64,000 nt of DNA. Origin: an uncultured Bacilli bacterium. Its GTDB lineage: Bacteria > Bacillota_I > Bacilli_A > RF39 > UBA660. Position 1 is the first letter of the stretch, and each line of letters opens with the position of its first letter. Below, piece by piece: positions 18,315 to 56,615 of the stretch. The notes beneath the pieces were generated by a model. The model did not search any database and was not told where the DNA came from. It worked only from the letters and a program-made list of their open reading frames with translations. The stretch spans positions 11,529-75,528 of the forward strand of contig CAKPLP010000003.1 in assembly GCA_934167695.1 (NCBI GenBank), written 5' to 3'. The position numbers and the translations under genes were made by a program.

Positions 18315-19148
18315 ATGCAAGGACAAATTATTGAGATTGTAAGTGATTTACATATAGTTAGTTGCGATGGTGTTAAATATAGATGTAAGTGTAGGGGAAA
18401 GTTTAGAAATAAACATATTATCCCTCTTGTCGGTGATTTTTGTATTTTTGATGATAAGAAACTTATTATAGAAGAAATTTTACCTAGAAAGAATTGCTTT
18501 GAAAGACCTAAAGTTAGTAATATTGATCAGGGTATTATTGTTACGAGTTTAAATAATCCTGATTTTTCTATTAATTTACTTGATAGGTTTTTAACTATTA
18601 TGGAACTTAATAAGGTTACTCCTATTATTTGCATTACAAAAGAAGATTTAATTAGTTGTTCTCAATTAAATGAAATAAATCATGTTTTAGATTATTATAG
18701 GAACATAGGATATTTAGTGGTATCTAATACTGAAATTGAAAAAATAAAAGGTATTTTAAAGAATAAAACTAGTGTTTTTACTGGCCAAACTGGTGCTGGT
18801 AAAAGTACATTGCTTAATAAAATTGACAAAGATTTAGGTCTTTTAGTTGGAGATGTTAGTGAGGCACTGGGACGTGGTAAACATACTACTAGGGTTGTTT
18901 CTTTATTTGAAGTTTGTGGAGGAAAAGTGTTAGATACTCCCGGGTTTTCTGCAGTGGAATTTAGTAAATATAGTATTGAGGATATTAAAAATAGTTTTAT
19001 AGAGTTTAAAAACTTTCCATGTTTATATAAAGACTGTTCTCATACTAATGAGTCTGTTAATGAATGTTCAGTAAAAAAAGCTGTTTTAGAACGTAATATT
19101 TTAGAAGAAAGATATAATGATTATTTGAAGTTTATTGAGAGGAGATAG
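18315..19148 (+). CDS. rsgA: ribosome small-subunit biogenesis GTPase RsgA
   Basis: OB fold N-terminus. Circularly permuted GTPase (GQTGAGKSTLLN). C-terminal zinc-finger Cys (CLYKDCSH..C). Start at MQGQII. Confidence 0.85.
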   Translation: MQGQIIEIVSDLHIVSCDGVKYRCKCRGKFRNKHIIPLVGDFCIFDDKKLIIEEILPRKNCFERPKVSNIDQGIIVTSLNNPDFSINLLDRFLTIMELNKVTPIICITKEDLISCSQLNEINHVLDYYRNIGYLVVSNTEIEKIKGILKNKTSVFTGQTGAGKSTLLNKIDKDLGLLVGDVSEALGRGKHTTRVVSLFEVCGGKVLDTPGFSAVEFSKYSIEDIKNSFIEFKNFPCLYKDCSHTNESVNECSVKKAVLERNILEERYNDYLKFIERR

Positions 19149-19152
19149 AGAA

Positions 19153-19776
19153 ATGTTAGTAGCAACTTCTTTTTTAAGTAGTAAAAATCCCCCTAGAGAT
19201 TTAAAGATTCTTAATGATACTGATACTGATTATATTCATGTTGATGTAATGGATGGTAAGTTTGTAAAGAATAAAACAATGCCTTTTAGAGAAATGAAGA
19301 ATATTTACAAATATACATCTAAGAGATTAGATATTCATTTGATGGTAGAAGATAGTTCTGAATATATTAAAAATTATTCTTCTTTAAATACAGAGTTTAT
19401 TACTATTCATGTTGAGAGTAAAAATGTGAAAGATAATTTATTATTAATTAAGAGTTATAACATTAAAGCTGGGATAGCGCTTAATCCTAAGAGTAGGGTT
19501 GAAGATATTATACCTTATTTACCTTTTATTGATCAGATTCTTATTATGAGTGTTGAACCCGGCTTGGGAGGACAGGAATTTATTAAGGATTCTGTTTTGA
19601 AGATAAAGGAGATTAGATCGTTATTGAAAGAGTATAAGATTAATCCACTTATTAGTATTGATGGTGGAGTTAATTGTAATACTATTTCGTATTGTAAGGG
19701 TTGTGATATGGTTGTTAGTGGTAGTTATATAGTATTATCTGATGATTTTCAAGAAAGAATTAATAGTTTAAGATAG
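19153..19776 (+). CDS. rpe: ribulose-phosphate 3-epimerase
   Basis: HVDVMDG, SVEPGLGGQ and SIDGG motifs. GAGGAGA RBS. Confidence 0.85.
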   Translation: MLVATSFLSSKNPPRDLKILNDTDTDYIHVDVMDGKFVKNKTMPFREMKNIYKYTSKRLDIHLMVEDSSEYIKNYSSLNTEFITIHVESKNVKDNLLLIKSYNIKAGIALNPKSRVEDIIPYLPFIDQILIMSVEPGLGGQEFIKDSVLKIKEIRSLLKEYKINPLISIDGGVNCNTISYCKGCDMVVSGSYIVLSDDFQERINSLR

Positions 19777-19786
19777 GAGTGTAAAT

Positions 19787-20734
19787 ATGAATGATAATAA
19801 TAATTTAAATAATCAAAATGGTCAAAATGATGAAGTAACAATTAAAATAGATTCAAATAATAATTATAGTCAAGTTGCTGATTCTAATCCAACTGTTTCT
19901 ATTAATCCTGTTTCAACTGATTCTACTTCGATTAATAATAATTCTGTAAATGTTGTTAGTGATAATTCTATACCTACGATTAATATTTCTAGTAGTGATC
20001 AACCTAGTATACAATCTTTTTCTCCTAATAATATTTCTAATAATAATCAAACTGGTATACAAACTGTTTCTACTAATATAACTACTCCTAATGTAAGTGA
20101 AGTAGTTTCTAATAATAATTTATCTATGCCAGATACAAATGAGCCTAATATAGTTAATATTACTCCTGTTAATGATAATGTAAATAATGATTCTAATGAG
20201 TCTAAAAATGGAAAATTTAAGAGTATTCTTTTAGTTATTTTCTTTGTTTTATTATTTGGTTTTATTATGTTTTTACCTCAAATTTCTGAATTTTTTCAAA
20301 CTGGTAAATCTAATTATAATTCTAAGGAAGTTTTGAATGGGGTTCTTGTTTGTACTAGTGAAAAGAATAATGATGTTACAACTACTTATTATCAAATGGA
20401 TTTAAAGTTTAGCCAAAAGAAATTACAATCTTCTGAATATAATGTAACTGTAGAAAGTGAAGATGATAGTAAAATTCAAAGTAGTGATAAGGAGTGTAAG
20501 ACTGTTAGAGAGAAGGCTACTGATATAGAGGGTATTGATGTTATGTGTACTAGTAGTGATAATATTTCTACGATGATTCAGGATTATAATTATAAATTGA
20601 TTGATAATAGTAAGTTAACTAAATTTACTGAGGCTGGTGGTTTTTATCCAGAATTTAAATATAATGATGATATATATAATATTCAGTCTAAAATGGTTAA
20701 AGCTGGATATGATTGTGAAGTTAAATCTTCTTAA
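19787..20734 (+). CDS. hypothetical single-pass membrane protein with N/S-rich low-complexity N-terminus (315 aa)
   Basis: N-rich approximately 150-aa N-terminal region. TM ILLVIFFVLLFGFIMFL. Cys-containing C-terminal ectodomain. AGGAGTG RBS. Confidence 0.45.
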   Translation: MNDNNNLNNQNGQNDEVTIKIDSNNNYSQVADSNPTVSINPVSTDSTSINNNSVNVVSDNSIPTINISSSDQPSIQSFSPNNISNNNQTGIQTVSTNITTPNVSEVVSNNNLSMPDTNEPNIVNITPVNDNVNNDSNESKNGKFKSILLVIFFVLLFGFIMFLPQISEFFQTGKSNYNSKEVLNGVLVCTSEKNNDVTTTYYQMDLKFSQKKLQSSEYNVTVESEDDSKIQSSDKECKTVREKATDIEGIDVMCTSSDNISTMIQDYNYKLIDNSKLTKFTEAGGFYPEFKYNDDIYNIQSKMVKAGYDCEVKSS

Positions 20735-20826
20735 TTTACATATTTTGACATTTTATGGATTTGGTAATTTTGCCCATTTATTGTAAACTTCTTATCTACA
20801 TGATATTATGTAGGTGAGGAGTTTAT

Positions 20827-21594
20827 TTGTTTATGAAGAAATTTATTTATATTTTAAATATATTACTTTTGTTATTAATTCCTACTACTGTGTTTGTATG
20901 TGGTGATGAGAATGTTATTCACTATAGTGCAGATACATCTACTAAAGTTGAAATGATAAAAACTACGGTTTTATTAAATAGAAGTAATAAAAAAAGGGAA
21001 GAGGAGGAAGCTATTAAAGCTTTAGCCTTAAAACAGGAAGAGGAAGAAAAAGCTAAACAAGAACAAGAAAAAACTGTTGTTAGACAAGTAGCTGTAACTG
21101 TTCCGGAGAAGGTTGTTGAGGAAGTTGGTTCTTTAGCAGGTAGTGATGATACTATTAATAACGATAAAAATATTGGTAATAATACTACGGTAACTATTAA
21201 TCCATCAGATCAAGTTTATGTTGGTTCTAAACTTAAGGGTAGTATGAGTGCTTATGGTAGGGATTGTTGTAGTAGTGATCCTAATAAGCAAGGTCATACG
21301 GCAAGTGGTTATAATATTAAACTTAGTGGTATGTATTATAATGATGCTGAGTATGGTAGAGTAAGAATATTGGCTGCTGATAAGAATTTTAAGTTATATT
21401 CAATTATAAAAGTTAATGATCCTCTGGATGGAGAATATAAAGCGATAATATTAGATAGAGGGGATTCTAATATTGGTATTGCTGAAGATAGATTATATAT
21501 CTTTGATTTGGTTGTAGAAAGTCAGGAATGGGCTAGACGTAAATATGGGGTTCATGAAAATGTTGAGTTTGAAATTTTAAGAATAGGTCAGTAA
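20827..21594 (+). CDS. secreted 3D-domain protein (MltA-like three-Asp domain; YocH/YabE-like cell-wall protein) with E/K-rich coiled-coil linker
   Basis: Signal peptide. EEEE/KAKQEQEK linker. C-terminal ...HTASGYNIKLSG...RVRILAADKN...AIILDRGDSNIGIAEDRLYIFDL matches 3D-domain conserved Asp spacing. Confidence 0.65.
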   Translation: MFMKKFIYILNILLLLLIPTTVFVCGDENVIHYSADTSTKVEMIKTTVLLNRSNKKREEEEAIKALALKQEEEEKAKQEQEKTVVRQVAVTVPEKVVEEVGSLAGSDDTINNDKNIGNNTTVTINPSDQVYVGSKLKGSMSAYGRDCCSSDPNKQGHTASGYNIKLSGMYYNDAEYGRVRILAADKNFKLYSIIKVNDPLDGEYKAIILDRGDSNIGIAEDRLYIFDLVVESQEWARRKYGVHENVEFEILRIGQ

Positions 21595-28839: not shown

Positions 28840-29445
28840 ATGGTAAAAAGAAAGTTAAAGTTAAGAAAAAATGTTTTATCTAAAATTATTATTTTTTTAA
28901 TACTTGTTAGTATTATGATTTTATTGTTTTTTGCTTCTTATTATATTTATACAAATAGTAGAAAAGATATTGTTTATAAAAAGAATGTTTATCAATATAG
29001 TTATCTTGTAATTGATGAGATGTCTGATAGCTTTGCAATAGTTGATAATAAGGAATTACATTTTGTAAAATCTAAAAATAACATTTATATTGTGGCAATA
29101 GATGGTAGAGATAAAGAAAAATATACAGGTATAATAGATTATACTTATGGTAAAACTAAAGATGTAAAACAAACTAAAATATATGGTTATCCCATAAAAG
29201 TAAATACAAAAATTCAAAATTTGGCTGTTAAGTATATTAATGATTTTTTGTCTTATGAAGATAAAATTGATATTGATATTAATAATTATTCTAAATATTT
29301 TCCAGATACTTATTTAGATACTACTATTCATGAATTTTATAAGTTTAATTATATAGTTTTTTTCTTATTACTTTTGGTACTTTTTATATTAATTTTGTTT
29401 GTTTATCATTTCTTTTTAAAAAGGAGGATTAAAAAATTAGATTGA
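28840..29445 (+). CDS. hypothetical membrane protein (N- and C-terminal TM helices)
   Basis: TM IIIFLILVSIMILLFFASYYIY and C-terminal YIVFFLLLLVLFILILFVYHFFL. Confidence 0.4.
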   Translation: MVKRKLKLRKNVLSKIIIFLILVSIMILLFFASYYIYTNSRKDIVYKKNVYQYSYLVIDEMSDSFAIVDNKELHFVKSKNNIYIVAIDGRDKEKYTGIIDYTYGKTKDVKQTKIYGYPIKVNTKIQNLAVKYINDFLSYEDKIDIDINNYSKYFPDTYLDTTIHEFYKFNYIVFFLLLLVLFILILFVYHFFLKRRIKKLD

Positions 29446-30209
29446 AAGATATTTTTAATTTTCGAAGTAGAAGTGCTTTTTATGTATATATATTTTTAAA
29501 TATTTTTGTTTTTATAGTTTTATTTAATAGGATTTTAAGTTTTGATTTTAAAAATGTTCTTTTATGTTTTACAAGTATTATTTTATTTATTACTCCTAAT
29601 ATAATTGAAAGTATGTTTAATATTAGATTTCCTTCATTTTATAAGATTTGCATACTTTTTTTTATTTTTTTGTCTGGAGTATGTGGAAAGATTTTTAATT
29701 TTTATTTGACTTTTCCTTTCCTTGATACATTTTTACATACTGTAAATGGATTTCTTTGTGGAGCATTAGGAGTAGGAATATTGAATTATTTTTTTTCTAA
29801 TAATATTCGTATTTCTCACTATTTAATTATTATTTTTATTATTTTATTCGCAAATTTTATTGGTGTATTATGGGAAGTAGTTGAATTTAGTAGTGATATT
29901 TTATTAAAAACAGATGCTCAAAATGATTTTGTTATTAGAAGATTTTCTTCTGTAGAATTGAATAAAAAAAAGAATGGTCATGCTATTATTGTTGATAACA
30001 TTGACCATACAGATATTTATTATATTAATAATGGTAAAATGGATAAAATTGTTGTAGATGGGTATTTAGATATTGGAATAATTGATACTATGAGGGATTT
30101 AATTGTTAATTTATGTGGGGCAATTTTCTTTTCAATTTTATTTATTTTATATATGGGTAATAATAAAAAATATAGATTTATGAATAATTTTATTATATTA
30201 AGAAATTAA
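29442..30209 (+). CDS. hypothetical polytopic membrane protein
   Basis: About 6 hydrophobic segments. TTG start overlapping the upstream stop. Confidence 0.4.
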   Translation: MKDIFNFRSRSAFYVYIFLNIFVFIVLFNRILSFDFKNVLLCFTSIILFITPNIIESMFNIRFPSFYKICILFFIFLSGVCGKIFNFYLTFPFLDTFLHTVNGFLCGALGVGILNYFFSNNIRISHYLIIIFIILFANFIGVLWEVVEFSSDILLKTDAQNDFVIRRFSSVELNKKKNGHAIIVDNIDHTDIYYINNGKMDKIVVDGYLDIGIIDTMRDLIVNLCGAIFFSILFILYMGNNKKYRFMNNFIILRN

Positions 30210-30213
30210 TTAT

Positions 30214-31230
30214 TTATGAATTTATTTTTTTTATGTAATTTTTATTAGTATTTAATTTATTTAATATTTCTGTTTGACTTTCTTCTTTTGTTTTTATATC
30301 TAATAATATTTTTTCAAATTCTTCAAAGTCTTTATCAAAATTTTGATATTTATCTTTCTTTTCTTTGTTTAAAAAATAATCAATATACATGTCGTATAAA
30401 TGTATATCATAGTCATAGTTATTTTCATCGTCATTATCAAAGTAATTGTTATTTTGATGATCATGTAATTTAACAAATATTTTTGCTGATATATTATAGT
30501 TTATTTTTTCTAGGTAGTCTATTAAACCGTCTATGTCTTCATTAAAGTAGATATCTAAAAGTTTATCTTCGGGTATTATTTTTTCTAATAGATAGATATT
30601 ATTTTTTTGATATGCTGCTTCATTATATAAAACTTTATTTGTAAATACTGTGTTTATTTCTTCTTCTAGTGCCATTCCATATTCAGAGTTTGCGAATTTA
30701 ATAACAATTTTTTTATTATCTTCTGTTAAATATATTAAATTTCTTAACATGTGACTTATTTCGTGATGAATAACATTATATAATGGTAAATCTTTACATA
30801 GGTTTAATTCATGTAGGTTGGCATCAAAGAAGGCCATTGTATATTTATTTTGACTTTTTTCAATTATTTCTTCTTTTGTTAAGTAATTAATTTTTATAAG
30901 TTCAATATTTTTTTGTAGAATACTTTTATCTAAGTCAGGATATTTATTACATATACTTTCAATATATTCATAAAAATAATCTTTTACTCCATATTCATTT
31001 GTTATAAATGGATTATTATTAACAGTTTTAATTAAATCATCATATGTTGGATTTTTAATTAAATATCCTAATTCTTCAGCATCATTTCTATTTGAAATTT
31101 TATTGTTTTCTTCATTAATGAAGTTTATTATAGAACCTTCTTCTTTAGTTATTTGGCCAACTTTTGTTCCTAATAATATACAGCTTGTTGCTAAAATTCC
31201 TATTTGAATTATGTTTAATCTTTTTTTCAT
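30214..31230 (-). CDS. secreted/anchored protein with HExxH motif (putative zincin-like metallopeptidase)
   Basis: Signal peptide MKKRLNIIQIGILATSCILLG (non-canonical lipobox). HEISH motif. Start at MKKRLN (ORF-track 31335 is an extension overlapping the rbfA promoter region). Confidence 0.45.
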   Translation of the reverse strand: MKKRLNIIQIGILATSCILLGTKVGQITKEEGSIINFINEENNKISNRNDAEELGYLIKNPTYDDLIKTVNNNPFITNEYGVKDYFYEYIESICNKYPDLDKSILQKNIELIKINYLTKEEIIEKSQNKYTMAFFDANLHELNLCKDLPLYNVIHHEISHMLRNLIYLTEDNKKIVIKFANSEYGMALEEEINTVFTNKVLYNEAAYQKNNIYLLEKIIPEDKLLDIYFNEDIDGLIDYLEKINYNISAKIFVKLHDHQNNNYFDNDDENNYDYDIHLYDMYIDYFLNKEKKDKYQNFDKDFEEFEKILLDIKTKEESQTEILNKLNTNKNYIKKINS

Positions 31231-31328
31231 AGTTTTTCCCCTTTTGCAGTGAGTGTTATTATAACATATACTTATGTAAATTGCAATAACCTCTATATAA
31301 TGATATACTTTTAAGTGGAGGGATATAC

Positions 31329-31670
31329 ATGGCAAATAATTTAAGAATAAAAAGACTTAATCATACTTATATGGAAGAAATTAGTATGATATTAATGGAA
31401 GAAGTAAAGGATGAAGAGTTAAAAGATGTTATTATAACAGGGGTTGATGTTACTAATGACTTAAGTTATGCTAAGGTTTATTTTACTTTATATAATAAAG
31501 AAAAAAGAAAAGATGTTTATACTGCTTTAAATAATGCGGCATCTTTTATTAGAGGACAACTTTCTTCGAGAATAGAGATTAGACATACTCCTGAACTTAG
31601 ATTTATTTATGATGAAAGTGAAGAGTATGGAGAAAAGATAGATAAGATTATTGATAATTTAAATAATTAG
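31329..31670 (+). CDS. rbfA: ribosome-binding factor A
   Basis: About 113 aa. RIKRLNHTYMEEISMIL...GVDVTNDLSYAKVYF KH-like RbfA pattern. GGAGGG RBS. Confidence 0.85.
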   Translation: MANNLRIKRLNHTYMEEISMILMEEVKDEELKDVIITGVDVTNDLSYAKVYFTLYNKEKRKDVYTALNNAASFIRGQLSSRIEIRHTPELRFIYDESEEYGEKIDKIIDNLNN

Positions 31671-31708: not shown

Positions 31709-31786
31709 TGTTATTAAAATTTTGTAAAATTTATAGCATTAATAGTATAAATGAATTATAATAAATAGTATCAGTAGGTGATTAAT

Positions 31787-32506
31787 TTGAAGATAAAGAT
31801 TAAAGATGTATTTGTAAATTATGTACAATATGGAAATGGTAAAGATATTATTTTATTACATGGTTGGGGACAAAATATTGAGATGATGAAGCCTATTGGC
31901 GATATGTTGTCTAGTAATTATAAAATTACGATTCTTGATTTGCCTGGTTTTGGTGAAAGTGATGAACCTAAATATGCTTGGACTTTAAAGGATTATTCTG
32001 ATATGCTAGAACAACTTGTAAATGAGTTGAATATAAAGAAACCTATTATTATGGGACATTCATTTGGTGGAAGAGTTGCTATTTATTATTCTAGTTATCA
32101 TTCTATTACTAAATTAGTACTATTTGGAAGTCCAGTTAGGCCTGAAAGAAGTACTAATAGTATTAAGGTTAAAGTATTAAAATCTTTAAAACAACTTCCA
32201 GGTATGGGGAAAATTGCGGAGAGAATGAAAAAATATATAGGGTCAAGAGACTATAAAGCTGCATCTACTATAATGAGGCAAGTTTTAGTTAATGTTGTTA
32301 ATCAAGACTTATCAGAATATGCTAAACAAATTGAGGAACCTACGTTATTAATATGGGGTGACAATGATTTGGAGGCAAGTATTGATGATGCTCATTTATT
32401 AGAAAATATTATGATTGATGCTGGAGTGGTTGTCTTACCGGGGACTCACTATGCTTATCTTGAAAATTTACCTCAAGTAATTAATATATTAAATAACTTT
32501 TTATAG
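31787..32506 (+). CDS. alpha/beta-fold hydrolase
   Basis: HGWGQN oxyanion region. GHSFGG nucleophile elbow. C-terminal His. TTG start 7 nt after an AGGTGA RBS. Confidence 0.7.
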   Translation: MKIKIKDVFVNYVQYGNGKDIILLHGWGQNIEMMKPIGDMLSSNYKITILDLPGFGESDEPKYAWTLKDYSDMLEQLVNELNIKKPIIMGHSFGGRVAIYYSSYHSITKLVLFGSPVRPERSTNSIKVKVLKSLKQLPGMGKIAERMKKYIGSRDYKAASTIMRQVLVNVVNQDLSEYAKQIEEPTLLIWGDNDLEASIDDAHLLENIMIDAGVVVLPGTHYAYLENLPQVINILNNFL

Positions 32507-32515
32507 GAGGAATTT

Positions 32516-34132
32516 ATGTTTTTGTTTTATTTAATAATAATTGCAATGATTTGTGAAGTCTTTTTTAAGACAAAAAAATCTCTTCATATGTTACAACAAA
32601 ACCTTTATAATGAAAATAATCGTTATTTAAAATGGGTTTTGAAAAATTCATCTAGTTATTTTAATATAGAAATTATTTCTATTATTATGGCTGTTTTGGG
32701 GGTATTTGTAATTTATGATGTTAATAAATATGTTATATTATCTCAAATAGTTATATTAATTGTTTATTGTGCTTTAACTTATAAATGGCGAAATAAATTA
32801 AAATATGAACAGACTAAAAAACCTCTTGTTTTTACAAAGAGAGTTAAAAGATTGGTTGTTACTACTACTATTTTATATTTGATTCCTATAATAGTATTAA
32901 TTTTGAATACTAGTAGTATAAGATTAGTTTGGCTTATGATACTTATTTTATCTATTATGGTATATATTAATGATTATATCGTATTCCTTTCTAATGTTAT
33001 TAATTTTCCTATTGAAAGATGTGTTTATCATTATTATAAAAGTAAAGCTCAAAAGAAGCTTAAAAGTATGTCTAATTTAAAGATTGTTGGTATTACTGGT
33101 AGTTATGGTAAAACTAGTAGTAAGAATATTTTGGGTAATATTTTAAATATTAAGTATAATGCATTGCCAACTCCTAAGAATTTGAATACATATAATGGTT
33201 TAATTATGACTGTAAATAATTATATGGATAAGTTTACGGATGTTTTTATTGCAGAGATGGGTGCTTATGTAAAAGGAGAAATAAAAGGATTATGTGATTT
33301 AGTTCATCCTAAATATGGAATTTTAACAACTATTGGTACTGCTCATTTGGAGTCTTTTGGAAGTGAACAAAATATTATAGATGGAAAATTTGAATTAATA
33401 GAGTCACTACCTCTTGATGGTATAGGAGTATTAAATGGAGATGATCCTAAGCAGGTTTCTTATAAGTTGAAGAACAAATGTGAAATAATTTGGATTGGTA
33501 TTGATAATCATGATGTTGATATTTATGCTAGTAACATAAAATGTTCTAGTAAGGGAACTAAGTTTGATGTTTTCTTTAAAAAGGAAAATATTAAATGTTC
33601 GTTTGAAACAAAACTGTTAGGTAATCATAATGTTTATAATATCTTGGCGGCTTTAGCATTAGGACATCGTTTTGGCATAGAAATTAGTGATTTGCAAGTT
33701 GCTGTTAAAAGTGTCTTACCAGTTGAACATAGATTAGAATTAAAGAGATTGGGTAATTTTTATATGATTGATGATGCTTATAATTCTAATCCTGTTGGTG
33801 CAAAGAATGCTGTTGCTGTACTTAAAATGATGCCGGGGATTAAAATAGTTGTTACTCCGGGTATGATAGAGTTGGGTTCAAAAGAAGATGAACTTAATGA
33901 GATTTTTGGAGAACAAATTGCTGAAGTTGCCGATTATGTTGTTTTAATTGGTAAGGAGAAAACAAAACCAATTAAAAAGGGACTAGAAAATAAAAGATAT
34001 GATTCTAGTAATATAATTGTATATAATGATGTAAGAGAAGCTTATGCTTTTATAAACAGTATTAAAAATGATACTGATGAGGATGTATATGCTTTATTTG
34101 AAAATGATTTGCCAGATACATATAATGAATAA
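32516..34132 (+). CDS. murF: MurF-type Mur ligase with an N-terminal 5-TM membrane domain in place of the canonical N-terminal domain
   Basis: P-loop GITGSYGKTS. AHLESFGS. C-terminal HRLE...IDDAYNSNP (MurF signature DDxYNANP). Residues 1-185 form about five hydrophobic helices. Confidence 0.7.
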   Translation: MFLFYLIIIAMICEVFFKTKKSLHMLQQNLYNENNRYLKWVLKNSSSYFNIEIISIIMAVLGVFVIYDVNKYVILSQIVILIVYCALTYKWRNKLKYEQTKKPLVFTKRVKRLVVTTTILYLIPIIVLILNTSSIRLVWLMILILSIMVYINDYIVFLSNVINFPIERCVYHYYKSKAQKKLKSMSNLKIVGITGSYGKTSSKNILGNILNIKYNALPTPKNLNTYNGLIMTVNNYMDKFTDVFIAEMGAYVKGEIKGLCDLVHPKYGILTTIGTAHLESFGSEQNIIDGKFELIESLPLDGIGVLNGDDPKQVSYKLKNKCEIIWIGIDNHDVDIYASNIKCSSKGTKFDVFFKKENIKCSFETKLLGNHNVYNILAALALGHRFGIEISDLQVAVKSVLPVEHRLELKRLGNFYMIDDAYNSNPVGAKNAVAVLKMMPGIKIVVTPGMIELGSKEDELNEIFGEQIAEVADYVVLIGKEKTKPIKKGLENKRYDSSNIIVYNDVREAYAFINSIKNDTDEDVYALFENDLPDTYNE

Positions 34133-34146
34133 GGGAGGAGAAATTT

Positions 34147-35370
34147 ATGAAAATTAAAGTTGGTGTTGTTTTTGGTGGTGAAAGTGTTGAACATGAAGTT
34201 AGTATAATTTCTGCACTTCAGGCTATGAACAAAATAAATCAAGAAAAGTATGAAATTATTCCTATCTATATTACAAAAGATAGAGAATGGTATACAGGGG
34301 AGATGTTGAGAGATATAGAATCTTATCAAGATTTATCACTTATAAAAAAATATGCAAAAAATGTCGTTCTTTATTGTGAGAATGGTAGATTTGTTTTAAA
34401 GAAAAAGAAAGGTTTATTTAATAAAGTAGTTACTGATATAGATATTGCTTTTCCAATAGTACATGGTACTAATGTTGAAGATGGTGCTTTACAAGGATAT
34501 TTTCAGAGTATAGGTATTCCTTATGTAGGACCTAATGTGTATGCTGCAGCAGTTGGTCAAGACAAAGTATATATGAAAAGAATATTTGAAGGTGAAAATC
34601 TTCCAATGACTAAATTTACTTGGTTTTACGATGCTGATTATAAAAATAATTTAGAAGATGTTTTAAGTAAAATTAAAAAATTAAAGTATCCTGTTATTGT
34701 AAAGCCTGCAACTACTGGTAGTAGTGTAGGAATTGGAACTGCTAGTAATGAGAAAGAGCTTATTGATGCTATTGATGACGCTATTCAATATGATTCTAAA
34801 ATATTAGTTGAAGAAATGGTTCAAAACTTAAAAGAGGTTAATATTAGTGTTTTAGGTAATTATGAACATCAAAAATTAAGTGAAATTGAGGAAGTAATTT
34901 CAAATGAAAAATTTTTGACTTTCGAAGAAAAGTATATAGGTAATGGAAAAACAAAAGGTAAAAATGGTTTGAAAATGATGAAGCCTAATAAAGGCTCTAA
35001 GGGTATGCTTTCTGCTACTAGAAAAATACCAGCAGATTTAAGTGACGAGGTAAGAGAAGAAGTAGAGAAAGTTGCAACTTCGGCTTTTAAAGCATTAGGT
35101 AGTTCAGGAGTATGTAGAATTGACTTTTTAATTGATGATAAAGCTCAAAAAGTTTATGTTAATGAAATTAATTCTATTCCAGGAAGTTTGTCATTTTACT
35201 TGTGGGAACCTAAAAATAAAAAATATACTGAATTATTAGATGATTTAGTTAATATAGGTGTAAAAGACTATAAAAAACGTGTTAGTAAAACTCATTCATT
35301 TGAAAGTAACATTTTAGCAGGATATGCAATGAATGCAGGTAGTAAAGGCACGAAAGGGAAATTAAAATAA
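34147..35370 (+). CDS. ddl: D-alanine--D-alanine ligase (long form, 407 aa)
   Basis: MKIKVGVVFGGESVEHEVSIISA N-terminus. ATP-grasp motifs (VKPATTGSSVGI, C-terminal INSIPG). Insert KTKGKNGLKMMKPNKGSKG. Confidence 0.85.
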   Translation: MKIKVGVVFGGESVEHEVSIISALQAMNKINQEKYEIIPIYITKDREWYTGEMLRDIESYQDLSLIKKYAKNVVLYCENGRFVLKKKKGLFNKVVTDIDIAFPIVHGTNVEDGALQGYFQSIGIPYVGPNVYAAAVGQDKVYMKRIFEGENLPMTKFTWFYDADYKNNLEDVLSKIKKLKYPVIVKPATTGSSVGIGTASNEKELIDAIDDAIQYDSKILVEEMVQNLKEVNISVLGNYEHQKLSEIEEVISNEKFLTFEEKYIGNGKTKGKNGLKMMKPNKGSKGMLSATRKIPADLSDEVREEVEKVATSAFKALGSSGVCRIDFLIDDKAQKVYVNEINSIPGSLSFYLWEPKNKKYTELLDDLVNIGVKDYKKRVSKTHSFESNILAGYAMNAGSKGTKGKLK

Positions 35371-38476: not shown

Positions 38477-40675
38477 ATGGAATTAAACTATAAAAATGTT
38501 CAACAATTAAATTCACAACAAATTTTAGATTTGTTATTACCTGATTTTTCTAATATTTATGAAAGTTTTAATTATATAGAAATATCAAAAAATGAATTTT
38601 ATGTTTTGGTATTAGATAGCATTACTAAATCAAAAAAGATGTATAATGGAGATGTTTTATATAAGGAATATATTGAAAGTGTGGTAACTAATAGACTTAT
38701 TGAGCATGTTAAATTAGATTTGTCTAAACCTGATAAAGCGGTTATTATTTTAAATAATTATATAAATAAATTTTTTAAGGTGGAAAATGATTTAGAAGAT
38801 AGGGTAAAGAAATTGGAATGTTTTTTTGAAATTTATAATTATATTCCTAGATCGAATTTATTAATAAAAGTAATAGAAAAAAATGAGTTTCTATCAAAAA
38901 CTATAGAATTAATTATTGATAAGTATAAGGACGATTTTTCTTATGATATTTTAGAAAATCAATTTAATGATAGTGTAATATTGTTATTTATAAAAACATA
39001 CTGTAGTTTAAATAATATTTTATTAAATGATGAGGTAAAAGTAGAGTGTGAAAAAAAATTATTAGATGATGTTAATTTTAATGAAGAAAATTATTTTCAA
39101 CAAATAAAAAAAATACCATTATTATCTATAGAAGAAGAGCAAAATTTGATAAAGCGTGCATTACAAGGTGAAATTGAAGCAAAAAATTTGTTAGTTTGTA
39201 GCAATTTAAGATTAGTTAATAGTATAGCTAAAAAATATATCGGTAGAGGAGTGCCGTTACAGGATTTAATTCAAGAAGGTAGCATTGGTTTGATGAAGGC
39301 AATAGATAAATTTGACTTAAGTAAAGGTGTAAAGTTTTCAACTTATGCTACATATTGGATAAGACAAGTTATTACTAGATCAATATATGATGTTGGTAAG
39401 GATATTAGAATACCAGTATATTTATATAAAAAAATTAATTCTTATAAAGATGCTTTACAAGAGTTGAGATTAGAGTTAAATAGGTATCCAACACTTGATG
39501 AAGTGGCAGCTAAAATGGATTTGCCTATATCTGAAGTTACAGAATTATTAAAATCTCAAGGTGATGTAGTAAGCATGAACACACTGGTTAATGATGAAAA
39601 TGATACTGAATTACAAGATTTTATTCCTAATACAGATGAGAGTCCTGATGAGTTAGCTATTACTACTGTTATGCAGGAGCAAGTAAGAGATTTAATACAA
39701 AATAGTTCTCTAAGTCAAAGAGAAATAGAAATATTAATGTTGAGATTTGGCTTTAATGATAATAAGATTATGACTCTTGAAGAGATAGGAAAAAAATTAA
39801 ATATAACAAAGTCAAGAGTTGGACAAATTGAAGCACAAGCATTAATTAAATTAAGAAAATCTAAAAAAATTAAACAATTTGCAGAATATATGTCTAATCC
39901 TGAACAGGCATTAAAACGTTTAGATGAGTTTAGAAAATATTATTATGAAAATAACCGTGCATATAAAAGCTTTTTATATGAAGATAAAGTAAAACAAAAA
40001 ATAGAAGTGGGAGAACATAGTATGCCAAGAAAATTAAAATCAATTTATGAATATCTTAGTGATTATTCGAAGGAACAGATTGATGAATTGATAGAAGAGT
40101 TACCTGAAGAAGATAAAGAATTAATTAAAGTAAGATATGGTAGTGATTTAAGTAAACCTGTAATAGGAAAATTATCTAAAAATCAAAGGGATAGATTTTA
40201 TGGAAGTCTTATTCCTAAAATGAGAAAAAATTTAAATAAAAAAAGTAAAGCTCAAAATATTAATAAAATTGTTCAATCTGATTCAAGGAAGAATGATTAT
40301 ACTGAACAATTAAAAAAAGTAAATCAATCTGCACAGGTACCTTTTAAAACAAATTTAGAAGATTCTAATATTAAGGAAAGTGAAGAATTGATTACAAAAG
40401 ATGATTATATTAAAATGTTAGAATTATTAAGAACTCCTAATTTTAGCCAAATGATAGCTGTTCTAACGGTAAAGGAAGCTGTAATTATTTCTTTAAAATT
40501 AGGATATGTAAATGGTGAATATTTTTCAACTGAGGCTATTGCTCAATTCTTAGGAATAGAAAAAGCCGAAGTTATAGAAACTACAAAAAAAGTGCTACTC
40601 TTATATAAAGAAAATATTAATCAGTTTATTGATCATGCAGTTGAAGTGATAGAAAAGAGTAAAATTAAAAAATAA
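38477..40675 (+). CDS. sigma-70 family RNA polymerase sigma factor (RpoD/SigA-like regions 1.2-4) with approximately 270-aa C-terminal extension
   Basis: Region 2 (LRLVNSIAKKYIGRGVPLQDLIQEGSIGLMKAIDKFDLSKGVKFSTYATYWIRQ). Region 3. Region 4.2 (LEEIGKKLNITKSRVGQIEAQALIKLRK). Then extra region-4-like repeats (ELIKVRYGSDL...; KEAVIISLKLGYVNGEYFSTEAIAQFLGIEKAEVIETTKKVLLLYK). Confidence 0.8.
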   Translation: MELNYKNVQQLNSQQILDLLLPDFSNIYESFNYIEISKNEFYVLVLDSITKSKKMYNGDVLYKEYIESVVTNRLIEHVKLDLSKPDKAVIILNNYINKFFKVENDLEDRVKKLECFFEIYNYIPRSNLLIKVIEKNEFLSKTIELIIDKYKDDFSYDILENQFNDSVILLFIKTYCSLNNILLNDEVKVECEKKLLDDVNFNEENYFQQIKKIPLLSIEEEQNLIKRALQGEIEAKNLLVCSNLRLVNSIAKKYIGRGVPLQDLIQEGSIGLMKAIDKFDLSKGVKFSTYATYWIRQVITRSIYDVGKDIRIPVYLYKKINSYKDALQELRLELNRYPTLDEVAAKMDLPISEVTELLKSQGDVVSMNTLVNDENDTELQDFIPNTDESPDELAITTVMQEQVRDLIQNSSLSQREIEILMLRFGFNDNKIMTLEEIGKKLNITKSRVGQIEAQALIKLRKSKKIKQFAEYMSNPEQALKRLDEFRKYYYENNRAYKSFLYEDKVKQKIEVGEHSMPRKLKSIYEYLSDYSKEQIDELIEELPEEDKELIKVRYGSDLSKPVIGKLSKNQRDRFYGSLIPKMRKNLNKKSKAQNINKIVQSDSRKNDYTEQLKKVNQSAQVPFKTNLEDSNIKESEELITKDDYIKMLELLRTPNFSQMIAVLTVKEAVIISLKLGYVNGEYFSTEAIAQFLGIEKAEVIETTKKVLLLYKENINQFIDHAVEVIEKSKIKK

Positions 40676-51871: not shown

Positions 51872-51887
51872 TATTAAGGTGTTAAGT

Positions 51888-52697
51888 ATGAAAAAAAGTG
51901 TGAGAAGAAAAAAGAATATTATGAATAAGAAAATTATTATTTTACTAATTTTTCTTCTTGCTATTTTAGCATTATTATATCTGTTTAAACGATTAGATTT
52001 AAAACAGATTTTTGTTCCTATATATGAAGTGAGTGATAGGACAAGCAATGTTAAAAAAGCGAGTAAGAAATATAGTGATCAAGCTGATGTAGTTGGTTGG
52101 ATAAAAGTTCAGGGCACTAATATTGATTACCCTGTAGTTTATGAAGATGGTTCTACTACTGAAAGATATTCATTTAATTATGCTTGGATTAACAGAAATA
52201 ATAAAAAATTGACTAATAGACCAATTATCTTTAGTCATAATATTAGAAATGTTTCAAGTCAACCTCTCATAGGTGATAAGGAAATGGATCAGTTTGAACA
52301 GTTGATGTCATATATTTATTATAATTTCAATAAGGATAATAAATATATTCAATATACTGTTAATGGTAAGAATTATTTATATCAAATATTTTCTGTTTCT
52401 ATTGTTGATGATAATTTAATAGATTATTACGATACATCTTACACTAAAAAAGAAATGAAAAAATATATTAAAGAAAGTTTGAATGATAGTTATTTTAAAT
52501 ATGATGTTGATGTAAGTGAAGATGATAAAATTATTACCTTAGTTACATGTACAAGATTTGATGGAAAATTACTTAATGATTTTAAAATAGATGCAAAATT
52601 AATTGACAAAAATAAAGGGTATAACTATAATGTTTCTGAAAAGAAAAATTATGATTATGTTAAAAAAATATTAAAAGGAGATGGCAATGATGTATAA
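51888..52697 (+). CDS. srtB: class B sortase
   Basis: DVVGWIKVQGTNIDYPVV, catalytic His region IIFSHNIRN, TLVTCT catalytic Cys motif and the following basic segment parallel S. aureus SrtB. Start at MKKSVRR after AAGGTG. Confidence 0.75.
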   Translation: MKKSVRRKKNIMNKKIIILLIFLLAILALLYLFKRLDLKQIFVPIYEVSDRTSNVKKASKKYSDQADVVGWIKVQGTNIDYPVVYEDGSTTERYSFNYAWINRNNKKLTNRPIIFSHNIRNVSSQPLIGDKEMDQFEQLMSYIYYNFNKDNKYIQYTVNGKNYLYQIFSVSIVDDNLIDYYDTSYTKKEMKKYIKESLNDSYFKYDVDVSEDDKIITLVTCTRFDGKLLNDFKIDAKLIDKNKGYNYNVSEKKNYDYVKKILKGDGNDV

Positions 52698-55600
52698 AGA
52701 TATGATTAAAAAGTGGGTTGGAATGTTATTTGTACTAGCCATTTGTGTTACTTTTTCAGTATTTGATGTTGATGCGAAGAGTACATGTACTAAAAGTGCT
52801 GCTAAAAAGTATTATAATGTTAGAATAGTAAGAAATGGAACTGATGATAAAACTGATTCTATAACTGTTAAAGCAAGTAATGGAAAATTTTATTTGAAAC
52901 TTGTTTCTTATGATAGTAATTTAACAAAAGAACAAATTGCAAAAGATAGTACTATTCCTGTTATTAATTCTACTAGTCCTCTTGTAGGTGGTAAGAGTTA
53001 TAAAATTACTAATAGCCAATTAAGAAATTATTATGATGGTGATGGTGCTTTAGCTGTTAAAATTGTAGCGATATTTGATTCTAATACTGAGGATGATAAA
53101 GATGCAGTGTGTGATGGTGATGATAAGTATATTAGAATGATTACTTATAGTGAACAGTTAGATGATGATAAAAGTACTACATCTTATAATGTTTCTGGTA
53201 ATACTCAAGGATGTATTGATCTAAATAATTTTATAAAGAGTCATTCTGATTATTTTGATTCAAAAATGTTAGATATTTCAAAATCTATTTTACCATCATG
53301 TTTTAATCAAAAAGTAACTTACAATGTTAGTGATGATACAATAGCAATATTAGAAAAAGAAATAGAGAAAATATATAATAATTATAAGAAATATAAAAAG
53401 AATACTGGTGATAGTGGTAATTTTGATGTTGAACTTCAAAAATTAAAAACTTTATCTTCTGATTGGATAGAAATAAAGAAGAAAAATAAAGCAAATCACC
53501 TAACCATTTCTGATAATACAGATAAAACATATAAAAAATTAGGTTCTAATAGTAGCAGTATGTTAACTTGTAGTACTAAAAATGAACGTGTTGAAACTAA
53601 ATTATTCTATATAAATGAAGAAAAAAATACTATTGATTATACTATCGGTGATGGTAGTGTTGGTTCTAAAGTAAAAAAGGATAATGTTGATGTATGTACA
53701 ACTGTTTGTAGAGAAAAGGTATCAATTTCATATGGTCCTCCGGTTGCAGTTGTCGCTGGCCAATGTTTTACATATGAAGTAGAAGTTAAGAGTAACGTTG
53801 AATGTATTGCTCAAGTTAATTATGATGTTTTCCCTAAATTTTCAGATTTTGAACCTTGTACAATATATGGTAGTTGTATAACTTCAGCAGGTCACGAACT
53901 TACTGGTTATAATGAACAAGCTGGTCCAACTGAAGACTTTGATAGTTGTGTAAATAGTTGTGATGGTGGTAAATATAGTCAATCATGTATAAATTCTTGT
54001 TATTCAAAAGTTTATGAAAAATCAACTGATACAAAATCTACTACTAAAACAAGTAGTGCTGATAGTGATAATACTGATATTATTGGTTATGCTTTAGATA
54101 CTCTTAATATTTCTAATAATTCAAAAGTTAGTAAAGTTAAATGGAATGGTAGTAATAGAGTTACTAGTTATACTTTAGATTCTGCTTGTCCTTCTGCAAG
54201 TGCTAGCGTTGATGAAGTTTATAATTGGGTAAATAAAAATATTACTGGTAATTATACATCTGCAGGTGGTACTTTAACTTACCAACCAAAGAATGGTGGA
54301 TGTATTTGGAGTCGATACGGTTATGCATATTTTAGAACTAAACAATTAGCTGCAAGAACCGTTTGTAATGCTCAAGGATATAACTGGATAAGTGGTAGAG
54401 AAAACTGTGAATTTACAAGTAATCCTAATGCAGATAATTATGAATACTATGATAATTGTTTGGCTAGTCAAGGTTGCTATAAAGGTAGAATGAAGAGTGG
54501 ATATAGATGTAAAAATGGTTATGATATTAGTGATTCTAGATGTGAACGAGTAAATTATTATGGTAATTATTATAACCCAGAAAATGGATTTAAACGTCAA
54601 AATGGATGTAGTGAATCTTGTAAATGGAAAGTAAAAAATAATGGTACTTGTAAATATGTTGACAGAGAGAAAGCTGAAAAGGATTATATTAATTCTATCA
54701 AGAAAATTTATGAGGCTTTGGATGGATGTATGAGTAAGGCTGCTGCAACATGTAATACTTCTAATTCTGTTTCTTATACTATGTCTGCTAATACTGATAC
54801 TACTACAACAAATCAATCATGTACTAATGGTAACTATGAATCTAATGGTAATTGTATTGACAAGGATCAATGGTATAATCAATCTAAAACTAAACAAACA
54901 ACTGGAAAAGTTAATAATCTAGATTTAGCTCAAAATACTATTATTAAATTAAATGATGGTAAATGTTATCAAAATAAGAGTGAAGATAATATGTATCATG
55001 GTATTATTACTTTCCCTGGTGCTTGGATTAATAATAAGACTGGAAAAGTTACTTATAGGAAACCAGCTTCTGAAGAAGAAAAATGGTATACATCATATAC
55101 TGGTAATTATTGTACTCCATTAATTGCTAAAAATGTTAATGCTAATTGGTGGACATGGCATTATTACAATAAAACGGGTTCTATTACAAAAGAGTTTGAT
55201 CAATGGGAGTCAGCAGGAGATATTAAAAATATAGTTTATAATATCTTTAGTAAAATAAAGAACTTTGGTAAATATAATTGGAATATAAATACTGGTTGTT
55301 TCTATGCTATTAATAACTATACTGGTAAACCTTGTGATAGTAGTTCATCTAAATGTGATACTATAACTGATACTGAAGTTCCAGGTCCAGAACATTGTAC
55401 TAGTTCTAGTTGTCCTAAAAAAGATGACCAGCTAAAAGCTGAGAATAATTCTAAAGTTGATAATTATTCTTCTAAGTCTATTACTTCATCTAATTTATTC
55501 CCATCTACTAAAACTAGTTCTTTGACTGATAAAACAGTACCTGCTGTTAAATTAAGTTATGGTAAAAAAATGGCTGATACTAATTCATCTACTAGGTCTG

Positions 55601-56076
55601 AAGGATATAACTGGTCTGTTCAAGCAACTAATTTATCTGTTAAAAATTATCCAGTTACTCCTTCTTCACTAGTTAAGAAAATACAAGCTGGTAATACTTA
55701 TGTTGATTCAGAAATTGATTATGAATTTAAATTAACTAAAGAACAAATAAGTACTATTAAGAATGAATCTAAAAGTAGTACTAGTGATAAATTTTATATT
55801 AATTATGCTAATAATTATGTTAAGTTAAATAATAATGCTGATTATAAAAAGACATTCCAAAACTATAATTTAAATACAAATGATGTTGATGGTATAAGTT
55901 TTTATAAAAGTAATTACATTAGAAGTCATGCGACTAAAGTATATGCACCAGATGGAAATGCTTTAAAATGTAATAATTTAAAGCGAAATGGTTCAAATTA
56001 TAGTTGTGATATGTTAACTGATTATGTTAAGAGTGATTCTGAACTTCAAAGTTGGTTAAGCAAGGTAAATAGTTAA
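52687..56076 (+). CDS. large secreted Cys-rich protein (about 1130 aa), no recognisable domain
   Basis: Signal peptide (…VFDVDA|KS). More than 50 Cys, S/T/N-rich. No C-terminal sortase signal or TM visible. Confidence 0.55.
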   Translation: MMYKDMIKKWVGMLFVLAICVTFSVFDVDAKSTCTKSAAKKYYNVRIVRNGTDDKTDSITVKASNGKFYLKLVSYDSNLTKEQIAKDSTIPVINSTSPLVGGKSYKITNSQLRNYYDGDGALAVKIVAIFDSNTEDDKDAVCDGDDKYIRMITYSEQLDDDKSTTSYNVSGNTQGCIDLNNFIKSHSDYFDSKMLDISKSILPSCFNQKVTYNVSDDTIAILEKEIEKIYNNYKKYKKNTGDSGNFDVELQKLKTLSSDWIEIKKKNKANHLTISDNTDKTYKKLGSNSSSMLTCSTKNERVETKLFYINEEKNTIDYTIGDGSVGSKVKKDNVDVCTTVCREKVSISYGPPVAVVAGQCFTYEVEVKSNVECIAQVNYDVFPKFSDFEPCTIYGSCITSAGHELTGYNEQAGPTEDFDSCVNSCDGGKYSQSCINSCYSKVYEKSTDTKSTTKTSSADSDNTDIIGYALDTLNISNNSKVSKVKWNGSNRVTSYTLDSACPSASASVDEVYNWVNKNITGNYTSAGGTLTYQPKNGGCIWSRYGYAYFRTKQLAARTVCNAQGYNWISGRENCEFTSNPNADNYEYYDNCLASQGCYKGRMKSGYRCKNGYDISDSRCERVNYYGNYYNPENGFKRQNGCSESCKWKVKNNGTCKYVDREKAEKDYINSIKKIYEALDGCMSKAAATCNTSNSVSYTMSANTDTTTTNQSCTNGNYESNGNCIDKDQWYNQSKTKQTTGKVNNLDLAQNTIIKLNDGKCYQNKSEDNMYHGIITFPGAWINNKTGKVTYRKPASEEEKWYTSYTGNYCTPLIAKNVNANWWTWHYYNKTGSITKEFDQWESAGDIKNIVYNIFSKIKNFGKYNWNINTGCFYAINNYTGKPCDSSSSKCDTITDTEVPGPEHCTSSSCPKKDDQLKAENNSKVDNYSSKSITSSNLFPSTKTSSLTDKTVPAVKLSYGKKMADTNSSTRSEGYNWSVQATNLSVKNYPVTPSSLVKKIQAGNTYVDSEIDYEFKLTKEQISTIKNESKSSTSDKFYINYANNYVKLNNNADYKKTFQNYNLNTNDVDGISFYKSNYIRSHATKVYAPDGNALKCNNLKRNGSNYSCDMLTDYVKSDSELQSWLSKVNS

Positions 56077-56099
56077 TTGTGGAGGTGTGTTGGTAAGAT

Positions 56100-56588: not shown

Positions 56589-56615
56589 TTTATAAAAAGA
56601 AAGAAGAGGGATGTT

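Follow-up and report, generated by a model that had tools for sequence, protein, structure and literature searches.

A MurF-like ligase family of gut and soil Firmicutes in which a five-helix membrane module stands in place of domain 1

INTRODUCTION

MurF (EC 6.3.2.10) is an essential enzyme and antibiotic target that textbooks describe as soluble, and its domain 1 recognizes the substrate, as distinct from the central and C-terminal domains that follow it in the solved structures of E. coli (1GG4), T. maritima (3ZL8), P. aeruginosa (4CVK/4CVM) and A. baumannii (4QF5). Within the Mur ligase superfamily, different acceptors are accommodated by exchange of the N-terminal or accessory module. Here we describe a family of MurF-like ligases without domain 1, in which a membrane module of five transmembrane (TM) helices takes up the N-terminus. 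Its first member is encoded in a 64,000-nucleotide stretch of DNA, the window of this study, from an uncultured Bacilli bacterium of the RF39 lineage (GTDB UBA660; GenBank assembly GCA_934167695.1, contig CAKPLP010000003.1, positions 11,529 to 75,528 of the forward strand). We refer to the protein, TM-MurF, and its relatives as TM-ligases, and to the gene together with its two neighbors, which encode an alpha/beta-fold hydrolase and a D-Ala-D-Ala ligase (Ddl), as the cassette.

Several described systems share parts of this arrangement. MurT, a Mur-superfamily ligase and the partner of the glutaminase GatD in the lipid II amidotransferase (6GS2, 6H5E, 6FQB), has no N-terminal UDP-binding domain and acts at the membrane on lipid II, a lipid-linked precursor. 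It is a soluble protein whose C-terminal domain is of the DUF1727 type; it contains a Zn ribbon, depends on GatD and, instead of attaching a dipeptide, amidates D-Glu. CphA and folylpolyglutamate synthetase (FPGS) use other acceptor modules. The poly-gamma-glutamate synthetase CapB/PgsB and the cyanophycin synthetase CphA1 apply the Mur-ligase fold to non-nucleotide acceptors, which they polymerize; CapB couples the fold to a membrane anchor, and CphA1 fuses it to an ATP-grasp enzyme. The two enzymes that supply and attach D-Ala-D-Ala are encoded side by side in the ddl-murF operon of Bacillus, represented here by B. thuringiensis (ddl, 361 amino acids; murF, 458 amino acids; next to a DEAD-box helicase gene).

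Compared with canonical MurF, the TM-ligase has the same central and C-terminal domains with all of their motifs and shares the linkage to ddl, and it presumably catalyzes the same ATP-dependent addition of D-Ala-D-Ala; it differs in having no domain 1, a 186-residue five-TM module with motifs of its own, an additional C-terminal motif and an upstream hydrolase, and it falls in a separate clade. The absence of a UDP-binding domain is common to the TM-ligase and MurT. Whereas CphA1 carries its ATP-grasp enzyme as a fusion, the TM-ligase has a separate Ddl partner, and unlike the polymerizing CapB/PgsB and CphA1 it is MurF-like and accompanied by a bona fide Ddl. The cassette keeps the adjacency of the Bacillus ddl-murF operon but in reversed order, with the ligase before ddl, a hydrolase added and the MurF membrane-integral, and its Ddl (395-407 amino acids among the relatives) has an extended omega-loop and a basic tail.

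RESULTS

A MurF-type catalytic core without domain 1

The TM-ligase gene (positions 32516..34132 of the window, + strand, including the stop) starts with ATG and encodes 538 amino acids in a single frame with zero internal stops. A first-pass annotation made from the sequence alone had described it as one gene for a MurF-type ligase with a five-helix membrane segment in place of the N-domain. The three MurF signatures on which that description was based are all present, with GITGSYGKTS at residues 192-201, AHLESFGS at 276-283 and IDDAYNSNP at 418-426. Pfam places the central ATP-binding domain at residues 193-382 (33092..33661, + strand; Mur_ligase_M PF08245, E 2e-42) and the Rossmann-like C-terminal domain at residues 405-518 (33728..34069, + strand; Mur_ligase_C PF02875, E 1e-9). 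Key residues of the central domain (the P-loop G195-S-Y-G-K199-T-S, E247, H277 and K291) are invariant across family alignments of 16-70 sequences, and the C-terminal domain motifs H405-R-L and D419-D-A-Y-N-S-N425-P are conserved in the family. K291 aligns with K202 of E. coli MurF, the carbamylated residue of that enzyme; a lysine is thus present and invariant at the carbamylation position of MurD/E/F, and K291 is predicted to be carbamylated. The P-loop, the putative acidic and His metal ligands and the C-terminal domain assign the protein to the Mur ligase superfamily.

To the C-terminal side of these domains, the family has a motif of its own, L527-x-E-N-D-L-P-D534 (34094..34117, + strand), which is specific to TM-type ligases and at least 90% identical in 69 non-redundant members with pairwise identities down to 23-37%, the set used for the column identities given here. 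It can be written on as L-x-E-N-D-L-P-D-x-Y. When the C-terminal domain closes, this motif could touch the membrane module.

Profile comparisons place the core with MurF and at the same time mark what it lacks. Three MurF models scored 228, 184 and 147 bits, compared with 83 for MurC, 77 for MurE and 70 for MurD (all MurC/D/E models at most 86 bits) and at most 39 bits for the cyanophycin, MurT and F430 models. Residues 184-515 correspond to positions 70-393 of the 418-position NCBIfam murF profile TIGR01143 (227.8 bits, E 2e-67). This score is short of the curated cut-off of 288.6 bits because nothing in the protein matches the first ~69 profile positions, which represent domain 1; the homolog in Evansella, at 247.4 bits, is below the cut-off as well. 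Among solved structures, the best relatives are all MurF (1GG4 by sequence, E 2e-34), and the solved MurFs 1GG4, 3ZL8, 4CVK and 4QF5 align only from chain residue ~72-100 onward; in a Foldseek comparison, 364 of the 538 residues were aligned (E 1e-25) and the top ten fold matches were all MurF. Since profile, structure and fold matches all start past domain 1, this domain is without a counterpart in the TM-ligase. A Pfam search with residues 1-192 returned nothing even at E 10, apart from sub-threshold noise such as DUF4271, in agreement with the predicted absence of the Mur ligase N-domain. Judged by these models and by the phylogeny below, the TM-ligase stands apart from MurF proper on three defining points, namely domain 1, the curated cut-off and the clade.

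The other described systems are more distant. MurT structures appear among the fold matches at ranks 23-49, and the MurT model NF052464 is absent from the matches of the window protein and scores 31 bits against a cut-off of 800 in the Evansella homolog; no GatD-like gene was found in the cassette neighborhood. Cyanophycin models score at most 37 bits on the TM-ligase, and no CapB-type model is among its matches. By these sequence comparisons and those for Ddl given below, the cassette is not a MurT, CapB, CphA or Van-type system.

A five-helix membrane module with a conserved cytoplasmic face

The N-terminal module (residues 1-186; 32516..33073, + strand) consists of TM1 (residues 2-17), loop 1 (18-50), TM2 (51-67), TM3 (70-90), loop 2 (91-112), TM4 (113-131), TM5 (136-159) and a linker helix (160-186). 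Kyte-Doolittle hydropathy has five peaks above 1.6, at residues ~1-17, 51-67, 70-90, 113-131 and 136-159. AlphaFold2 modeled the full-length protein, using 70 relatives, with a mean predicted local distance difference test score (pLDDT) of 92.9, a predicted template modeling score (pTM) of 0.82 and pLDDT above 90 for the module helices, and modeled the module alone with pLDDT 92.6 and pTM 0.85. The predicted helices span residues 2-28, 30-43, 52-66, 70-97, 108-130, 135-150 and 152-184, the last of them a continuous helix that runs directly into the first strand of the ligase. Among the 69 non-redundant relatives, the three predicted inside loops contain on average 7.1, 7.8 and 6.2 Lys and Arg residues, compared with 0.1, 0.3 and 0.5 for the N-terminus and the two short outside loops. 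This distribution gives an N-out/C-in topology that places the ligase in the cytoplasm, the compartment of ATP and of the precursors, where the first-pass annotation had put it; together with the hydropathy peaks and the model, it upholds the five-helix reading of the N-terminus.

Conservation within the module is concentrated on one face. Cytoplasmic loop 1 (32567..32665, + strand) carries K-x-K-K-S-L-H24-M-L-Q27-Q-N29-x-Y31...R36-Y-x-x-W40, and cytoplasmic loop 2 (32786..32851, + strand) carries K101-K-P-L104-V-x-T107-x-R109-x-K-R112-L, with T116 at the start of TM4. The juxtamembrane linker helix (32993..33073, + strand) carries N163-x-P165-I-E167, with N163, P165, E167 and A178 conserved, and the last helix of MurF domain 1 corresponds to its end (~177-186), the 3ZL8 alignment beginning at query residue 177 and chain residue 72. 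Identity is at least 90% at H24, Q27, N29, Y31, W40, K101, L104, T107, R109, R112, T116, N163, P165 and E167; beside L104, these are 13 polar, charged or Pro positions, all of them at the cytoplasmic face. Mean column identity is 0.58 in loop 1 and 0.56 in loop 2 (0.56-0.58 for the loops and linker), which compares with 0.60-0.65 in the catalytic domains and 0.29-0.43 in the five hydrophobic cores, TM1 being lowest at 0.29. As the polar residues of the cytoplasmic face are fixed while the hydrophobic cores drift, the module is expected to form a binding or catalytic surface rather than an anchor, and the pattern suggests that it took over substrate recognition from domain 1.

A large family that branches apart from canonical MurF

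Searched against 5.8 billion proteins, the TM-ligase was matched over its whole length, at 65-78% identity, by more than 120 clusters of 515-540 amino acids, some of which NCBI names MurF of uncultured 'Bacilli bacterium'. In a scan of one genome per GTDB species, the gene was present in 39 species; these are uncultured gut Bacilli, 'Tenericutes' or 'Mollicutes' and include Clostridium sp. CAG:417 (RF39-type lineage). When the N-terminal 187 residues were searched alone, 499 clusters at 50% identity were recovered, and every full-length match (523-559 amino acids) carries a ligase with the same P-loop. The number of full-length relatives with the same continuous frame (515-559 amino acids) exceeds 340, as would be expected of one gene and not two. 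Profile searches extend the family to Clostridia (Lachnospirales, Acutalibacteraceae) and to cultured carriers, namely Anaeromicropila populeti, Alkalihalobacillus deserti and Evansella halocellulosilytica. The TM-ligases are thus a large family across gut and soil Firmicutes, a breadth that the first-pass annotation had not anticipated.

To place the family, 13 TM-type ligases and five canonical MurFs from five phyla (Bacillus, Monoglobus, Streptomyces, Klebsiella and Fusobacterium) were compared over 343 shared columns in a neighbor-joining tree with 200 bootstraps, a small and distance-based tree whose branching is to be read with caution. The TM-type ligases form a clade in 200 of 200 bootstraps, outside the clade of canonical MurFs (169 of 200). 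Mean identity is 49% among TM-types and 28.5% between TM-types and canonical MurFs, and the Evansella TM-type, at 29.7% identity to the canonical MurF of Bacillus, is no closer to it than to those of other phyla. From this distance and the separate clade, we conclude that the domain replacement is old and not a recent local fusion.

Databases label the TM-ligases as MurF or 'Mur ligase family protein'. No Pfam model was found for the membrane module, and in the literature that we searched there is no account of a membrane-spanning MurF, of its module or of the cassette. The TM-ligases are a previously undescribed family, a variant of MurF.

Searching 72,556 plasmids with tblastn returned only canonical MurFs. 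One plasmid match that starts inside the module was rejected as a TM-ligase, being a fusion of a HAD-family phosphatase to a canonical MurF within a normal dcw cluster. This 607-amino-acid protein of Fusobacterium vincentii (NZ_CP084075.1; 4440-6263 of the extracted locus L046), whose phosphatase part is GmhB-like, heads mraY-murD-murG and is another, different N-terminal elaboration of MurF. The 2.1 Mb record that holds it is filed as a plasmid but is a mislabeled chromosome without gene annotation.

The ligase is inherited together with a hydrolase and an atypical Ddl

Upstream of the TM-ligase, the first gene of the cassette (31778..32506, + strand) encodes an alpha/beta-fold hydrolase of 242 amino acids (Pfam Abhydrolase_1/6, Hydrolase_4), which the first-pass annotation had not linked to the ligase; downstream is the Ddl gene that it had noted (34147..35370, + strand; 407 amino acids, Pfam Dala_Dala_lig_N/C). 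The intergenic gaps are 9 bases between hydrolase and ligase and 14 bases between ligase and Ddl. A Shine-Dalgarno sequence, AGGAGG (32505..32510, + strand), read from the sequence, lies 5 nucleotides 5' of the ligase ATG and overlaps the TAG stop of the hydrolase gene (32504-32506), a tight junction that is consistent with co-translation of the cassette genes. The promoter/terminator scan, which performed at chance level in this AT-rich window (34 matches versus 36 expected), found no terminator-like sites inside the cassette.

The order hydrolase-ligase-Ddl was found in 34 of the 39 related loci, with another three cut by contig ends, and also at three loci of 45-56% ligase identity (L040-L042). 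The triad recurs in Evansella, Alkalihalobacillus and Anaeromicropila amid unrelated genes, such as a phosphotransferase system (PTS) and CRISPR-Cas in Evansella, and transporters and valyl-tRNA synthetase elsewhere. Pairwise identities co-vary between hydrolase and ligase (r=0.92) and between Ddl and ligase (r=0.96), and on these alignments the cassette is inherited as a unit.

The hydrolase has an intact GHSFGG nucleophile elbow (Ser95) and a C-terminal His (GTHYAYLE). Its best NCBIfam match is the EstV family lipase model NF058580, at 139 bits below the cut-off of 300. H. pylori EstV (HP0739) presumably lies beside murF (HP0740); only the identity of HP0740 as murF is confirmed, and this adjacency is not used as evidence. 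In Bacilli and Clostridia alike, the TM-ligase is inherited together with such a hydrolase, and we know of no rationale for a recurrent esterase partner of MurF and Ddl.

The Ddl scores 309.5 bits with NF002528, above the cut-off of 262, and keeps the K-Y of D-Ala-D-Ala ligases, whereas all Van-type models are far below their cut-offs (the best, VanG, at 212 versus 495 bits). Its nearest solved structure is S. aureus Ddl (2I87). Cassette Ddls share 45-67% identity with each other versus 33-40% with the canonical Ddl of Bacillus, and they are set apart by two features. One is an omega-loop insertion of ~28 residues (265-292; 34939..35022, + strand) directly after the K-Y, where the S. aureus Ddl alignment breaks (query 264-293); it ends in S-K-G-M-x-S-x-x-R-x-I-P-A and is kept in six cassette Ddls from RF39, Bacillaceae and Lachnospiraceae. 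The other is a Gly/Lys-rich C-terminal tail (SKGTKGKLK; residues ~382-407; 35290..35367, + strand). Cassette Ddls of distant hosts have both, and the canonical Ddls of Bacillus and S. aureus have neither. A possible role for them is an altered second-substrate site, or docking to the membrane or to a partner. That this Ddl is atypical and co-inherited goes beyond what had been noticed at first pass.

Genomic surroundings

The window has 22-31% G+C and holds nearly all of its genes on the + strand; its other genes are housekeeping (Tex, NrdD/NrdG, dUTPase, RbfA, Lon and a sigma factor). No further cell-wall gene was found in the window or in the 10 kb past either end. With a hidden Markov model of the ligase domain, we found no second Mur ligase in the window, in the 10 kb beyond each of its ends, or within +/-10 kb in the 39 related loci. 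Genes resembling VanH, VanX, VanY or VanRS, or other regulators, are absent near the cassette in the window and at six other loci, and no RNA family of Rfam matches the window. In two related loci the ligase has unusual neighbors: a topoisomerase I-like gene at L035 (ligase at 253-1869), and ABC transporter and pilin-like genes at L039 (ligase at 9986-11605).

The sole minus-strand gene near the cassette (30214-31335) encodes 373 amino acids without a Pfam match but with a HEISH (HExxH) zinc-metalloprotease-like motif and an N-terminal hydrophobic segment, and a 40%-identical homolog is found in the same place at the related locus L001. Next to it, two overlapping genes (28840-30209; 201 and 255 amino acids) encode multi-pass membrane proteins without a Pfam match. 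A 732-amino-acid protein (38477-40675) has sigma-70 regions 2, 3 and 4 confined to residues 240-461, with extensions of ~240 (N-terminal) and ~270 (C-terminal) residues without a Pfam match, and is unusually long for a sigma factor. Farther along, a block at 51879-62768 contains genes for a sortase, a 1131-amino-acid surface protein, a Tad/type II secretion system-type ATPase and an RcpC-like protein, and past the window end (11000-20978 of the extracted region L052) there are TrbL, TraC, TraG and VirD4-like conjugation genes and a glucosaminidase gene; this block and the conjugation genes probably belong to an integrated conjugative element that includes a pilus locus. A homolog of CotE, of spore-coat morphogenesis, is encoded at 2561-3088, and a short way upstream of the window the contig also carries SpoVS (L051 6780-7040). 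Because of these two genes, the host is probably an endospore-former.

DISCUSSION

A proposed role at the membrane face

From the architecture, topology, conservation pattern, clade and cassette, we infer that the probable reaction of the TM-ligase, at the membrane face, is the attachment of D-Ala-D-Ala to a MurNAc-tripeptide precursor, which the module would recognize in place of domain 1. The adjacent, co-inherited Ddl would make the D-Ala-D-Ala dipeptide (or a close D-Ala-D-X), and the ligase would activate the terminal carboxylate of the MurNAc-tripeptide with ATP and attach the dipeptide to it. The acceptor would be held at the inner face of the membrane, where the catalytic core sits on a helix of ~30 residues that leads out of the last TM helix. 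The His, Gln, Asn, Tyr and Trp of loop 1, the Lys, Thr and two Arg of loop 2 and the Asn-x-Pro-x-Glu of the linker would then make up the replacement acceptor site, probably for the diphosphate-sugar end.

As to the acceptor itself, we lean slightly, by analogy and short of an even chance, toward undecaprenyl-diphosphate-linked MurNAc-tripeptide; the soluble UDP-MurNAc-tripeptide is a possible, somewhat less favored candidate. Since Mur ligases swap the accessory module according to the acceptor, MurT being an example, a membrane module suggests a membrane-resident acceptor. The Arg/Lys cluster of the module is placed just where a lipid diphosphate would be expected, but the same residues could equally hold UDP. 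Tentatively, then, the module may bind undecaprenyl-diphosphate, and lipid I- or lipid II-tripeptide at the inner leaflet may be what the enzyme extends with D-Ala-D-Ala.

Several observations weigh against the proposed reaction. Two of the 39 related loci, L035 and L039, carry a TM-ligase without an adjoining hydrolase or Ddl, so the cassette can be split. The hydrolase has no part in the proposed mechanism, and the remodeled omega-loop makes the second-substrate specificity of the Ddl uncertain. The proximity of the conserved loops to the active site is a prediction from the topology and the full-length model. A further difficulty is the supply of D-alanine: among 99 RF39 genomes surveyed with KEGG, alanine racemase (K01775) is found in 1% (PMC7301438, supplementary file 2) and D-alanine transaminase in none, while ddl and murF are found in 57-68%, values that are orthology-group frequencies and not copy numbers (PMC7301438).

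Alternative explanations

An assembly or sequencing error, or a wrong start, that joined a membrane-protein gene to a 5'-truncated murF could be suspected from the unusual architecture and from a few database relatives called with later starts (515-528 amino acids). The frame is unbroken, however, in the more than 340 full-length sequences, which are independent and come from many samples, assemblers and cultured-isolate genomes, and this excludes a frameshift or fusion artefact; with the modeled helix continuous from TM5 into the ligase, a strong Shine-Dalgarno sequence at the start and no in-frame stop, we regard the probability of an artefact as negligible. A passive tether is a different matter. 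Here a housekeeping MurF would act on soluble UDP-MurNAc-tripeptide, recognizing it wholly through the central and C-terminal domains, and the helices would only hold the enzyme at the membrane near MraY, to which its pentapeptide product would be channeled, much as the first-pass annotation had proposed. The MurF-like catalytic domains beside ddl, as in the canonical Bacillus ddl-murF, agree with this, as do mraY and ftsW ~9 kb upstream in one relative, and in H. pylori a soluble MurF is reported to be brought to the membrane by partner proteins (PMC9507126). Yet an anchor needs neither the loss of domain 1 nor five helices, it is the polar loop residues that are most conserved and the hydrophobic cores that vary, the module is fused to the TM-ligase clade and to nothing else in the 499 clusters, and that clade is separate from canonical MurF. 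We therefore keep the membrane location from the earlier proposal, consider the mere anchor distinctly unlikely, and note that the invariant polar residues of the cytoplasmic face and the variable cores are what speak against it.

The cassette might instead be a self-contained precursor-editing system rather than a housekeeping enzyme, either a resistance or stress bypass with D-Ala-D-X, in which the hydrolase removes the normal terminus or a competing compound, or a sporulation paralog. Some glycopeptide-resistance clusters contain dedicated MurF paralogs. The cassette has unrelated surroundings in Evansella, Alkalihalobacillus and Anaeromicropila while being inherited as a unit, the omega-loop of its Ddl, the cover of the second substrate site, is remodeled, and its hosts are spore-formers or, as with RF39-type bacteria and the CotE and SpoVS genes on this contig, predicted to be (PMC10868615). 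Such a system is nevertheless unlikely, given the absence of Van-like genes or regulators nearby, a Ddl that keeps its Lys-Tyr and is far under all Van-type cut-offs, zero copies on the plasmids searched, and near-universal retention in the reduced genomes of RF39 (39 species representatives), which fits a core function better. No link to sporulation regulons was seen at these loci either; the sporulation-type paralog raised at first pass thus has spore-forming hosts and a separate clade in its favor and nothing specific to sporulation. Finally, a Mur-superfamily ligase for another membrane-associated molecule, a lipid- or polymer-linked peptide, would account for the missing domain 1, the sole reader of the UDP-MurNAc handle, for the separate clade and for an esterase/lipase-like partner that is unexpected in peptidoglycan precursor synthesis. 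This is highly improbable in view of a MurF model ~140 bits above any other Mur-family model, a partner that passes the Ddl cut-off, and the restriction of the family to lineages with known or predicted peptidoglycan.

Implications for RF39 and other carriers

The RF39 clade is predicted to make peptidoglycan of the meso-diaminopimelate (mDAP) type, with mraY and murG in most genomes, and surveys of its genomes do not mention a membrane-fused MurF architecture (PMC10868615; PMC7301438). The family described here, with hundreds of protein clusters of 519-559 amino acids that have this architecture and thousands of database clusters in all, dominates in RF39, a highly prevalent uncultured lineage of the human and animal gut. 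A plain 'MurF' annotation hides a distinct enzyme class, and reconstructions of the pathway in RF39 and its relatives rest on an enzyme that fails the MurF cut-off. For the small genomes of RF39, the cassette is probably the working MurF/Ddl pair; in the large genomes of Bacillaceae and Lachnospiraceae, it is probably an extra module.

If the acceptor is indeed carried on a lipid, the TM-ligase would be the first known case of a Mur ligase that is integral to the membrane and acts on a lipid intermediate, and the textbook order of MurF followed by MraY would be reversed or bypassed in RF39-type bacteria. In larger genomes, the cassette would then be a repair or salvage system that re-caps truncated lipid-linked precursors, and a complex at the membrane surface would include the esterase/lipase-like hydrolase and the basic-tailed Ddl. 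Cultured carriers exist in Evansella halocellulosilytica, Alkalihalobacillus deserti and Anaeromicropila populeti, which makes the hypothesis directly testable. At its fullest, the finding would mean that these bacteria carry out the last cytoplasmic step of precursor synthesis on the membrane, perhaps on the lipid carrier, with a changed pathway order and a new target surface.

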